From: Octopus sinensis
Taxonomy: Eukaryota
DNA length: 64,000 bases
NCBI RefSeq assembly: GCF_006345805.1
Contig: NC_043012.1
Coordinates: 41,230,001-41,294,000 of the forward strand
Reading direction: 5' to 3'
Shown here: positions 24,601 to 55,539 of the stretch, in pieces
How positions within the stretch are numbered: position 1 is the stretch's first letter
Layout: each line of letters begins with the position of its first letter
The notes under the pieces: model-generated
Told to the model about the DNA's origin: nothing
What the model saw: only the letters and a program-made list of their open reading frames with translations
Database searches by the model: none
Position numbers and translations under genes: made by a program

Positions 24601-24955
24601 AGACCCACAATAATAAAAGGCAATGTCGACTCTGATGGTGTTTGAATTTAGAATGTAAGATAAGTTTCCTATATCCTATTATTTACCATAATCCGCTTTC
24701 TTTCTTCTCTCCTGCTTCTTTTAAGATATCACGTTTAAGCTAAAAATATTAAGAACCTATTGTTGATGTTATACTGAGAACACATAGAAATATAATAATG
24801 AAATGGAAGTATAATTAAAATAGTTAGCTCTGTCTGAAAGGAATTATTCTTGGAGTTAGAAGCGGGGATTTTTATGTTGATGTTGTTGATAATGTTATTT
24901 TGCAGTTGATGGTATCTTCGTATCAAGTTCCATTGTTATCATAAACATAGAGGAT

Positions 24956-24961
24956 TTTATT
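24956..24961 (-). terminator. Putative polyadenylation signal, precursor gene A
   Basis: AATAAA on -, conserved at the homologous position in gene B (47825-47830). Confidence 0.55.
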
Positions 24962-24977
24962 AAATGAAAAATCAATA

Positions 24978-25399
24978 TAGGTGCAGGAGTGGCTGTGTGG
25001 TAAGTACCTTGCTAACCAACCACATGGTTGCGGGTTCAGTCCCACTGCGTGGCATCTTGGGCAAGTGTCTTCTACTATAGCCCCGGACCGACCAATGCCT
25101 TGTGAGTGGATTTGGTAGACGGAAACTGAAAGAAGCATGTCGTATATATGTATATATATATGTGTGTGTGTGTGTTTGTGTGTCTGTGTTTGTCCCCCTA
25201 GCATTGCTTGACAACCGATGCTGGTGTGTTTACGTCCCCATCACTTAGCGGTTCGGCAAAAGAGACCGATAGAATAAGTACTGGGCTTACAAAGAATAAG
25301 TCCCGGGGTCGATTTGCTCGACTAAAGGCGGTGCTCCAGCATGGCCACAGTTAAATGACTGAAACAATTAAAAGAGTAAAAGAGAGAAAAGAGTAAAGA
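24978..25399 (+). mobile_element. Full-length family 1 SINE in the putative 3' UTR of gene A
   Basis: Matches 563-960; absent at the homologous site in gene B (about 47840). Confidence 0.9.
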
Positions 25400-25489
25400 G
25401 ACTAATAGTAGAAACATGTAAACTTGCCTGTATTGGAGCGACCAGAGCTAATTCTTATGAAATTCGTTGAAATAGGATAATTCAGCCCT

Positions 25490-25758
25490 TTATGGGTATT
25501 TCGGAAATCTTAGAAATATCTGATGTTCTTTGTCGACCGAATTATAACTACGCTTAACAATATTACTAGGACGGCCGTTCCTGTGACGTGCCCTCCTTTT
25601 TTGCTCAATCATTTTCGAGCGTACTTTTTCCATCATTAAGTATATCGCACGTATATTGTTTTTGGGGCTTGCGCGTTTAAATCTACTGAAAGCCGGAATG
25701 CGGATAACTACGTTCCTCCGCGCCCATTTCTTTACAATTGAATCAACCGTATTGCCGT
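25490..25758 (-). CDS. Secreted peptide precursor A, last coding exon (spliced product 116 aa)
   Basis: TTCTTCTTATTTTTAG acceptor, phase 1; (D)GNTVDSIVKKWARRNVVIRIPAFSRFKR-ASPKNNIRAIYLMMEKVRSKMIEQKRRARHRNGRPSNIVKR-SYNSVDKEHQIFLRFPKYP-stop; homologous to 47919-48318. Confidence 0.8.
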
Positions 25759-27175
25759 CTAAAAATAAGAAGAAATACCGGAAATCAACAGCTGTCAGTG
25801 ACATTTTACTTTCAATGAGAAACAAAACAACAATATTCAGATTAATGACTTGTAAGTTCGTGTTATTTCGTTATTCAAGCATAATATACAATAAAGTATA
25901 GTAAATGTTTTTATAAGCCAATACCACGTTCTACTGTGTTAGCAGTGCTCTTTACATTATTTCTACAGAAATAACATTGACAACACAAATTTTTTTTGCT
26001 TCAACGTTTCGTATCGGGACGTTAGATGTAAACAGACAATGAGATTGACGATAAAAGTGGGTAATGAGCATATATGCCATATTTCGGGGGATTCTTCCCC
26101 TTCATCAATACCCATCTAACCCACTCTTACCTCCGAACACATTGCTTATACAGCTACCGCATGCAGCCATGTTAAGTTATTGGATATACCGATTTACATT
26201 AAACGCATTCCTGGAGCAGGTATGTAGACATTAATGACTTGTCGGCCCGTGGTATTTCGTTATGCAACCATAACATGCTATAAAGTATATCCAGAGTCAA
26301 CAATTATACATCGAGGTAGTGCTGCTGGACCGAGAAATGTAGGAAGTGGATTCTGTTGCTGCGACCCTGTTTGGAACCCGACCAATAGTAAAACGGTAGA
26401 GAGACGTTCTTGGTGGAGCCGCTATGTATCGGCATTGAGAGGTCTCAGCTCTACTACAACGGAGATGTGATTAAGATTTCGAAGAAAATCATCGCAGGAA
26501 AGATTCCTCAAGCCGCGCTAATCGGCAGAAGACTTAGGGGTAGACCAAGAATGAGATGGTTGGATGATATGTAGGAATCCAGTCGCGATTTGTAATGGCG
26601 GTTGCTATGTATGTATGTATGTATAAACATGCATATATGAAGATGTATATCATGCGTAAGTGTATGCAACAGTGTGTATGTCTGTATGAAGAATACCAAT
26701 ACACACACATAGACATGAAAATATCGAACACGGAAGAAAAAGTGTTCAATATCAGAAGTGTAGGTAACATTTTATTATATAATTTATGTGGAAATTCTAG
26801 AACCTGCGGTTTCATGCTGACAAAAGTCTACAATTTACTACAAGAATTATCATTAAGACTAAATTGTAAGAGAATAAGACGAAATTTGATGTTGTCGTTG
26901 TCAAATAGTAGTAGTAGTAGTAGTAGTAGTAGTAGTAGTAGTAGTAGTAGTAGTATACGAAGATGATCAAAAAGGAAAATTATCATTTAACCTCTCTTTT
27001 CTGTCACTCACTTTTTAATATATCCGTCAATAGCATTCGACATCCATTCTATCTCGAGCCATCCTAAAGATACACGTCGCTAACCAATCATATTTGAAAG
27101 CATCACGGAAGAGTAAACCCATCAGTGAAGATGGTTAATAAAAGTTAGGAATAAAATTGGAGAAAATAACTTTAC

Positions 27176-52540: not shown

Positions 52541-53307
52541 TTAAATGCAAGTTACATTGTCGTCAAATGAATGCTTGGTTCTCGAGTCATGCCAGGCTCA
52601 TAGGGCGGGTTCCCTGGTTTCTGTGGCATATATATTCCATCCCCCACTGAATGGGATGCCGGTCTGTGGCAGGATTATTCCTTTTTCCTGGCTGAATGGA
52701 CTGGAGCAACGTGAAATGAAGTGTTTTGCTCAAGAACACAACGCGTCGCCCGGTTCAGGAACTGAAACCACACCTGTGGTGTGTGTGTGTGTGTGTGTGT
52801 GTGTGTGTGTGTGTGTGTGTGTGTGTATGTTTGTCTGTGTGCGTGTATGTGTGCTTGCGCGCCTGTAGTTGTATGAATGATACGCATAGACTCTAATACG
52901 TAAATACCGAACCCGTAAGAACGAGTGTTCAATCCTTAGGATATGTAGATAAATTCTCGTAATAGAATTTACACGACATTTCTAGAACGCACACTTCCAT
53001 GCTGACAAAAATATACAATTTACAAGAAATGCAATCTCAAACGATGACTGAATAGTTGATACGAGTGAGTTGCCCGATCATAAGACAGAATTTGATGTTT
53101 TCCCCAATGTAGTTGTAGTAGTAGTAGTAGTAGTAGTAGTAGTAGTAGTAGCAGCAGTAGCACCCTTTTTCCCTTTCTTTCCCGTTACCGTAACAGCTAC
53201 TAAATACACGTCGCCAACTGTTATATATGAACGCGTTGAAGAGCAAACTTGTCAGTGAAGAAGGTGAATAAAGGTTAGATGGAGTAAAACCAGACAAAAC
53301 AACTTAC

Positions 53308-53389
53308 CATCAGGTTCTTCAGTGTTGACATTTCCCCAAATTAAGGCAGCTACGATTATCAAAAAGTACAGGGCCAAGTGTCTCTTCAT
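53308..53389 (-). CDS. Secreted peptide precursor B, signal-peptide exon (exon starts at about 53414)
   Basis: MKRHLALYFLIIVAALIWGNVNTEEPD, then G|GTAAGT; 82 coding nt and an acceptor 25 nt upstream of the ATG, exactly as in gene A. Not in the ORF track. Confidence 0.85.
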
Positions 53390-54304
53390 TTCTAAAATAT
53401 TTTGTAGCTTTAAGCTTTAGAATACGAAAAAATAGAAGAAATAAGACAAAAACTATATAAGGTGTATATATATATATATATATATATATATATATATATA
53501 TATTATATATATATGCACACATATTATACACACACACAACACATATATATATATATATATATATGCACACATATTATACACACACACACACACATATATA
53601 TATTATATATATATATAACGTTGATAACAGAAAAACAGAAAGGAGAGTGGAGATTTTATTCACATCCCAAAACTTCTTTATCTAAGCTTTCTGCAGTGTA
53701 TACATCTGACCTACATCTGTTTCGACAGCAACGACTGTAAATAGCTTTGTATACAATTATGCATTCTAGTCGTTGCAATTTCGTCAAGGCTCGATCACTC
53801 GCAAAGTTTTCAACAAAGTGAACTGATTCAAACAACAAGCGTCCTGCGTTGGTATTTTGTTGAAGCTGATAGCGTTACTGTGTATATTCGATGGGTTATT
53901 GATGTTCTAATCACTTCTACTGGTAATACAGTTGAAGTGTGCTTTTAAATTGTTTATTCAGATTTCAATTAACTGTAGCAGTTTTGTTAACATGTTTTTG
54001 TACGGTACACATTATTTATTCAGAGGTATTTTGGGTTTATACCCTCGATTATTATTATTATTATTATATTATTATTATTATTATTATTATTATTATTATT
54101 ATTATTATATTATTATATTATCATTATTATTATTATTATTATTTTATTATGTTATTATTGTTATTATTATTATTATGATTATTATTATATTATTATTATT
54201 ATTATTATTATTATTATTGTTATTATGTTATTATTATTATTATTATTATATTATTATTATATTATTATTTATTATATCATTATTAATATAATTATTATTA
54301 TGTG

Positions 54305-54660
54305 ATGAAAGCTCACAGCTTATTTTGCTGGGTGTGATGGAAAGTGTCAGCTGTCCACAGGCAGCAGACTAAGGTGACACTTGTTTATTGGTCATCTTTC
54401 AAGAACTTTGCGAAAACTTCTTGCAGTTCCGAGCAATGCTAATTTTTGTAGGTGTTCTACCTTCACACTTGCACCGATCTTTTTCAGCCATGCTGGTAGT
54501 TGAGTGCTGCTACTTCCAACTGCGCCGTTTACTATTGCTTTCACGTCCTCTCTCCTCATTGACCACCACTTTCGTATTTCCCCACTTGAAATCGTTGTAG
54601 TTGTTCGTTTTTCTCCTTTCTCATTGATCCTGTCGTCACCTGGGCATGATATAACGATTA
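54305..54660 (-). mobile_element. Dong/R4-like 3' fragment next to (TAA)n
   Basis: EIRKWWSM...IVNGAVG...LQKLALLGTARSFRKVLE; 3' UTR nearly identical to 1455-1540. Confidence 0.75.
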
Positions 54661-55300
54661 TCATGCTTTTTCTTTCTTTTTTATTCGCCACAACAATGTC
54701 CATATATGCGTGTGTGTGTTATCTTTGTGCTTCTGTTTGTCCCCACCTCCATCGCTTGACTACCGATGGTGGTGTGTTTACGTCACCGTAACATAGCGGT
54801 TCAGCAAAGAGACCGACAGAATAAATACCAGACTTAGAAAGAATAATCCAGGGATCAATTTCTTCGACTAAAAGGCGGTGCTCCAGTATGACCCCGGTCA
54901 GAGGACTGAAACAAGTAAAAGATTAAAGGAATAAATATATGTGTGTATGTGGGTGTATGAGAGAGAGAGAGGGAGAAAGAGAGAGAGAGAGAGAGAGAGA
55001 GAGAGAGAGAAAGAGGATAAGAAGTAGAAAGTCTTTGGTATTGTGTTATATATTTGAAAAGATGAATAGATGTGACTTTTCTGATCATTTTAACAATTTA
55101 ATAATTAAATGTTTACTAATTATAAATAATAAATATAACAATAACAAAATAATATAATAATAATAAAATAATAAATGCCTACATACATACATATATATGT
55201 GTGTGTTTAGTGTGTGTTTAGTGTGTGTTTAGTGTGTGTTTAGTGTTATATAATAAATGTTATAAAATAAATGTTTAGTGTTATATAATAAATGACATAC

Positions 55301-55363
55301 CGTATGAGAATTTCTTGACAAGCGCGTTGTCTAATGAGAATTAAAAATCACTGCCCTTATATA
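55301..55363 (-). promoter_or_regulatory. Gene B TATA box and short non-coding first exon
   Basis: TATATAAG (55363-55356), then ...CTCATACG|GTATGT donor at 55301/55300; homologous to 30433-30487. Confidence 0.65.
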
Positions 55364-55539
55364 GTAACAGCTAGTAGTAGTGATAGTAGTAGCAGCAGCA
55401 GCAGCAGTGGTAGTTATGGTTTAAGGATATGCAACTCACCCTTCGTCAAACGAAGGTGGAGGAGAAGAGTGTCGGTGTAGAGGGGATAGTGTTGGTTATG
55501 GTGGTTTCGTTGGCTGAAATACTGGTGATGTTGGTGACA

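Follow-up and report, generated by a model that had tools for sequence, protein, structure and literature searches.

What two small, similarly built genes of an octopus encode, and from which gene they arose, is the question raised by a 64,000-nucleotide (nt) stretch of Octopus sinensis DNA (NC_043012.1; G000:C16:41230001-41294000), which we call the window. The two genes, A and B, lie on its minus strand and had been put forward in a preliminary description as two whole, unrecognised genes for secreted peptide precursors. From a comparison of the sequences, we show that A and B share ancestry with gene C, a PMEFLamide/PxFVamide precursor gene located outside the window, and that the repeats of that gene were lost in A and B. 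The explanation that we favour, and to which we give an even chance, is that A and B are tandem duplicates of gene C that would release a new helical peptide of 24 residues (24-mer), likely the animal's own neuro-endocrine signal.

The four exon junctions proposed earlier (30433>27282 and 27176>25758 in gene A, 55301>53414 and 53308>48318 in gene B) are all of the GT-AG type, and with them spliced gene A is an open reading frame (ORF) of 116 amino acids. Its TATA box lies at 30479-30487 (also given at 30485), in a TATA-to-donor block that is 72% identical to that of gene B, and is followed by a non-coding exon 1 at 30433-30455 (donor 30433), the start of which was placed from the TATA box. Exon 2 (27176-27282, ATG at 27257) encodes a predicted signal peptide, and the coding part of exon 3 (25490-25758) completes the ORF and contains the predicted mature 24-mer at 25601-25672, between RFKR (25684-25673) and KRR. 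Further downstream, a 3' untranslated region (3'UTR) block common to A, B and C (25400-25455) is split from the single AATAAA polyA signal (24956-24961) by a SINE-like repeat (24976-25399, strand unassigned) that has no copy in the 3'UTR of gene B; self-BLAST detected further SINE-like copies in the window at 559-956, 36361-36831, and 54702-54930.

Gene B has the same arrangement on the same strand, with a TATA box at 55355-55363 (also given at 55361), a non-coding exon 1 at 55301-55330 (estimated start; donor 55301), an exon 2 at 53308-53414 (ATG at 53389), an exon 3 coding region at 47919-48318 that is spread over two frames, and the conserved 3'UTR block with a single AATAAA (47830) at 47825-47902. 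Its 24-mer, at 48162-48233, follows RVKR and, as the gene is assembled here, does not share the reading frame of the signal peptide. In both genes, exon 2 is 107 nt long and consists of a 25-nt UTR (ATG at offset 25) and 82 coding nt that end at a phase-1 donor. The N-termini are hydrophobic (hydropathy peaks of 2.7 and 3.5), end in W-G, and are homologous to that of gene C. Both products are free of cysteine, and the block I..IY.MMEKVR.KMIE.KR is present after RFKR or RVKR, as described previously. Exon 1 and the splicing of both genes are predicted from sequence conservation.

BLASTN searches were run against a 464-kb database made of the window and 200 kb on each side. Genes A and B were 72% identical in the promoter and exon 1 (E 1e-8), 74% in exon 2 (E 5e-30), and 70% in exon 3 (E 1e-23), and their 3' ends also aligned far above chance. 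In the core (31 codons), the ratio of non-synonymous to synonymous substitution (dN/dS) between them was 0.35; the exon-3 head gave 0.57 and exon 2 gave 0.79. Searched with a profile, 1.84 billion representatives yielded three proteins at E<=0.001, two of which are real relatives, consistent with the narrow taxonomic range suggested before. The first is XP_052829390.1 (LOC128249547; P0003), a protein of 164 amino acids from O. bimaculoides and the full-length counterpart of gene B; the label 'unrecognised' given earlier therefore holds only in part, since RefSeq already had a whole-gene model of the B counterpart, under the name uncharacterised. The second, P0004, is a distant, N-terminally partial protein from Logan with an open frame. 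The third protein, P0005 (E 3e-4), was a chance low-complexity match and was excluded from all alignments.

Gene C is located at G000:C16:41407241-41416849 (L024:2849 to L023:3241), 113-123 kb past the end of the window and on the same, minus, strand as A and B. It is a precursor gene of the PMEFLamide/PxFVamide (MIP-PRQFVamide) group, in which exon 2 has 82 coding nt, a W-G end, and a phase-1 intron, as in A and B, exon 3 encodes 17 MEFLG repeats, and a frame of 1,743 codons encodes 115 F[VI]GK copies, mostly DPMFV and DPMFI flanked by G-KR. BLASTN queries taken from A and B, none of which contained C, found it through exon 2 (E 2.7e-8 for A and 4.2e-12 for B), through the exon-3 head (E 1.6e-4), and through the 3'UTR (E 1.5e-8 and 2.6e-8); E-values from profiles that already contained C are circular and were not used. 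The exon 3 of gene B is collinear with gene C: its first 58 nt match the exon-3 head of C at a score reached in 0/500 shuffles (12/500 for gene A), the DNA that follows its helix aligns to the non-repeat tail of C at a score reached in 0/1000 codon shuffles, and no genomic control piece (0/560) reached the score of the whole exon body. At the protein level, the tail homology is weak, with 26 to 299 of 500 for single sequences and, for a profile, 5/981 reported shuffles and two weak pieces.

The likeness to gene C thus extends over the signal-peptide exon (82 coding nt, phase 1), the exon-3 head, the 3'UTR motif, the strand, the locus, and, in gene B only, part of the C-terminal tail. The cargo differs: gene C carries 17 MEFLG and 115 F[VI]GK copies, whereas A and B have none and carry one 24-residue segment each. 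No PxFV or PMEFL amidated repeats flanked by G-KR were found in A, B, P0003, or P0004, while they are present in gene C; no protein-level counterpart of the 24-residue segment was detected in gene C, and the helix-coding DNA did not match the gene C tail (514/1000). Judged by eye, the squid (Idiosepius/Xipholeptos notoides) orthologue of gene C, the precursor idiosepiusNotoides.288058 (PMC6425005 supplement), resembles it from its signal peptide up to and including the PMEFL repeats. Since the squid precursor retains the repeats, the form that bears them is older than the separation of octopus and squid, which makes A and B the derived copies. Both descend from a PxFVamide/MIP-PRQFVamide precursor gene, with which they have exon structure and non-coding sequence in common, but they lack the tandem amidated repeats that define such precursors and are therefore not members of the PxFVamide/PMEFLamide peptide family. 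A and B are not orphan genes; the preliminary description overlooked this ancestry along with the frameshift in gene B and the O. bimaculoides model.

Several features of gene C were recorded separately. The gene is a very large PMEFLamide and DPMF[VI]amide precursor with about 130 copies. Its exon 3 may also be read beyond its donor until a stop is reached, and an AATAAA lies near L023:9013, so that a short isoform encoding only PMEFLamide is possible. Its third intron (1.45 kb) has no microsatellite, unlike four other introns checked. The reading of this 1.45-kb spacer as frameshifted coding sequence was ruled out by 27, 33, and 36 stops in the three frames.

What replaced the repeats is a single segment with a constant layout. 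In all four members, exactly 24 residues stand between an R-x-x-R site (RFKR in A, RVKR in B and P0003, and RFER in P0004; dibasic KR in three of the four) and a polybasic run, so that basic sites flank a conserved peptide as in prohormones, which bears out the secreted-precursor layout suggested earlier. Nine positions of the 24-mer are invariant (I7, I10, Y11, E15, K16, R18, K20, M21, and I22), and 12 of the 15 invariant alignment columns fall within the block from R-x-x-R to the polybasic run. Eight positions are hydrophobic in all four members and lie on one helix face (131/10000 random sets). The helical nature of the conserved core, also proposed before, agrees with the AlphaFold model of P0003, where helix 60-87 is the best-supported part (block pLDDT 72 and 84). 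Basic residues, with no glycine, directly follow the 24-mer. The locus is thus predicted to work like that of a single-peptide prohormone descended from a PxFVamide/PMEFLamide gene, and the 24-mer is most likely a new octopod helical signalling peptide.

An alternative reading is that the helix is a cationic antimicrobial peptide, for which a cysteine-free, helical, and basic precursor and the net charge of +3 of the gene A 24-mer would speak. However, the charges of the other three 24-mers are -1, 0, and -1, so that a net positive charge is not conserved, and conservation bears on specific residues rather than on overall charge; we consider this reading very improbable. The Gly-basic motif NG[RK] of the preliminary description is not conserved: of the four members, it aligned only in the two window genes. 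Because of this and of the net charges of -1 to +3, neither an amidated nor an antimicrobial product is supported.

A single helical peptide between basic sites might also be expected of the missing cephalopod ELH/DH44/CRH orthologues, and the helix presumably bears a loose resemblance to ELH-type helices. Peptides of the ELH/DH44/CRH type are C-terminally amidated and about 35-45 residues long, whereas the segment found here has 24 residues and no amidation glycine. No Pfam CRF or ELH match was obtained for the four members at E<=10, genome searches with PF00473 and PF02323 did not return the locus, and the ancestry is traceably PMEFLamide/PxFVamide. These genes have been reported as probably lost in cephalopods (PMC6425005), and orthology, to which we give almost no credence, is largely refuted.

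Several observations weigh against a functional, released 24-mer. Gene B is one base short of gene A at about 48252-48246, just before RVKR, which places a frame break at 48246-48252 relative to gene A and to XP_052829390.1. With junction 53308>48318, its product has only 62 amino acids, so that of the two whole genes announced, A stood, with its open frame, and B did not as modelled. Constraint is modest: the identity of gene B with the O. bimaculoides protein reaches only 61%, and the overall A-B dN/dS, from just 80 codons, is 0.53. The short post-helix region of gene A does not align to the gene C tail (222/1000), P0004 has RFER instead of a dibasic site, the classical hydrophobic moment of the segments is not above that of shuffled sequences (448, 303, 342, and 42 of 1000), and the P0003 fold model is of low confidence overall (mean pLDDT 57.7, from four sequences).

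Some of these points would suit a reading in which the duplication left A and B as by-products, in decay or under weak constraint, and the 24-mer is not a released bioactive peptide. Gene B is frameshifted, gene A has lost most of the tail and has a repeat inserted in its 3'UTR, the overall dN/dS is 0.53, and none of the six genomic ORFs (three of A/B and three of C) had an exact protein match in the collection. However, the open frame is retained in O. bimaculoides and in the distant P0004, the 24-residue spacing and the nine invariant positions persist at 41-59% core identity, and both copies have kept the promoter, the splice sites, and the polyA signal. We therefore regard decay as improbable. 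As for gene B itself, the break is its sole lesion and the 1,743-codon frame of neighbouring gene C is unbroken; the RVKR block is encoded in a different frame (ORF 47919-48257), which is open for 108 codons. XP_052829390.1, whose frame is open, continues across the break site and matches gene B in two frames, with 96/157 identical residues overall when gene B is read with an X at the break and 30/50 upstream of it (46/114 with gene A). A recent null allele or pseudogene and an assembly or sequence error have about even odds as causes of the break.

The same origin from gene C could also have led to an exocrine gland, where the 24-mer would act on prey or conspecifics as a venom, mucus, or pheromone peptide. 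Fast protein divergence (61% between gene B and O. bimaculoides) stands beside conserved non-coding DNA (3'UTR 92-96%, 3' flank 78%), a pattern known from venom gene families. Recruitment of duplicated neuropeptide genes into venoms is described as common (PMC13311285), and 27 superfamilies of short secreted proteins of unknown nature are reported from cephalopod salivary glands (10.64898/2026.02.02.703354). On the other side, exact motifs gave no match in the supplements of two cephalopod salivary-gland papers (files that may be incomplete), the genome holds only two copies, dN/dS is below 1, and the gene structure and synteny of octopod venom SF1 do not fit. We consider gland use possible but unlikely, and the preference for a signal of the animal itself is a prior taken from the parent gene rather than a result.

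SF1 comprises tachykinin, octotensin, and myosuppressin mimics (10.64898/2026.02.02.703354). Like A and B, its members are octopod-restricted, tandemly duplicated small precursors with varied peptide cargo on one scaffold. SF1 however arose independently of neuropeptide genes and lies between NR-GRF and FABP (10.64898/2026.02.02.703354), and its second coding exon mostly encodes 10-20 amino acids, whereas the last exon of A and B has 89 or more codons. A and B have a neuropeptide parent and, as neighbours, an ITIH-like gene on the left and gene C; NR and FABP profiles were not run on the flanks. Further parallels come from other molluscs. The cone snail C-superfamily derives from a somatostatin-related gene, and the atrial-gland peptides of the Aplysia ELH family are reportedly neuropeptide genes duplicated and redeployed. 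As in these cases, the duplicate retains the secretory scaffold and yields a different peptide; those duplicates usually keep or modify the parent peptide, whereas here nothing of the repeat cargo is left and the conserved helix has no clear coding ancestor.

This last point raises the origin of the helix. A weak collinear match was found between the helix DNA of gene B and the 5' part of gene C intron 3 (5/1000 shuffles, 2/412 genomic controls), but it turned up after several searches, the helix DNA of gene A did not match that intron (453/1000), and the match went undetected by the protein profile. Deletions might have removed both repeat blocks together with splice sites, a piece of intron 3 thereby becoming coding. 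That the helix was born de novo from this intron and selected into a new octopod hormone, possibly for a class-B G-protein-coupled receptor (GPCR) that the reported loss of ELH/DH44 in cephalopods deprived of its ligand, seems doubtful to us, and we treat de novo exonisation as no more than a lead.

The course of events under the favoured explanation, a tandem duplicate of gene C carrying a new helical peptide, would be as follows. One copy of gene C would have undergone one or more internal deletions that brought the exon-3 head and the last-exon tail together, and this shortened copy would later have been duplicated into A and B. As in established prohormone biology, the signal peptide would route the precursor into the secretory path and granules. 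Cleavage by a prohormone convertase or furin, both after R-x-x-R and at the polybasic run, and trimming by a carboxypeptidase would then release a non-amidated amphipathic 24-mer. With less support, its conserved one-sided hydrophobic face may bind a receptor of the animal itself, most plausibly a GPCR. Gene A would be the working copy in this assembly. The birth of a new signalling peptide at this locus is likely on these grounds. That neuropeptide genes are duplicated and put to other uses is already known (PMC13311285); what is new is that a multi-copy cargo was fully replaced by an unrelated conserved helix with the parent gene next door. As parent gene, intermediate remnants, and outgroup are all visible, the birth of a new peptide precursor through replacement of the cargo can be followed at the level of single bases. 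The locus also offers a specific, easily synthesised 24-mer as a candidate octopod hormone, pheromone, or venom component, and the uncharacterised RefSeq gene LOC128249547 gains an ancestry.

Searches for other relatives gave little. Of 971 candidates, the profile built on the four sequences retrieved P0003 and P0004 only. Neither last exon had a match in word-based protein searches, and the Pfam matches were limited to DUF, coiled-coil, and other weak ones. Foldseek found nothing, and no solved structure is a credible relative; a PDB sequence match to ZMYND11 (E 0.007) was read as charged-helix composition and set aside. An Atlas search with P0001 was uninformative (scores of 0.78 or less), and the language-model neighbours of P0003, mostly assorted peptide-hormone precursors at 0.83-0.87, fall below the 0.9 reliability mark and serve as a lead only. 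No further paralogues were found in the 464 kb around the locus with nhmmer and hmmsearch, or genome-wide by protein, DNA, and pattern searches; the genome-wide ones are word-limited and, when queried with A and B, did not recover even gene C. A literature search that included six peptide motifs drawn from A, B, P0003, and C, and covered few subscription journals, found the family undescribed in print, and within the same coverage no function, family, or mention of LOC128249547/XP_052829390.1. A term search of the supplements of PMC7693380, PMC11525497, and PMC12607849, in the parts available, did not find the family, nor did it appear in the available parts of 10.1101/2023.11.27.568875 and PMC5996578.

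The 3'UTR block deserves separate mention. It is identical at 53/56 nt between A and B and at 43/53 between A and C (about 80-81% to C), and a 29-nt pattern of it has three matches in the 2.7-Gb genome, at A, B, and C by construction, and none outside. Between A and B, identity is 92-96% in the 3'UTRs and 78% in the 3' flank (window 25400-25455, 24620-24975, and 47460-47902), in contrast to differences of 43% at synonymous sites and 21-29% at intron ends; the gene C counterpart, at L023:3156-3210, is kept at about 80%. This strong conservation between A and B could be due either to a cis-regulatory element or to partial gene conversion. As to a structured RNA, there was no Rfam match in the window, and the block had folding z-scores of -1.2 to +1.2, a weak consensus fold, and no stable fold.

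PMEFLamide has been described as a PRQFVamide-related peptide of cuttlefish haemolymph (PMC5736919), PxFVamide denotes the Mytilus inhibitory peptide group (PMC6188537), and prqfv genes serve as neuronal markers in octopus single-cell studies (10.1101/2022.06.11.495763, PMC9712504). The Ov-PRQFV primer pair published in PMC5736919 matches inside a C2H2 zinc-finger ORF on another contig (L062, G000:C27:13455515-13458534) with 0 and 1 mismatch about 160 nt apart, and an exact match to the forward primer occurs nowhere else, not even in gene C. The quantitative PCR made with these primers may therefore not have measured a PRQFVamide precursor.

Finally, the window contains a multi-exon gene resembling inter-alpha-trypsin inhibitor heavy chain (ITIH-like; 7832-16900, plus strand) with VWA and ITI_HC_C domains. 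A fragment of a non-LTR (long terminal repeat) retrotransposon (48510-50205, plus strand), with RVT_1 and zf-RVT both below cut-off, sits in the second intron of gene B, antisense to it. Two Tc1/mariner-type copies (33048-34527 and 59794-61247) are 92.6% identical over 1.48 kb.

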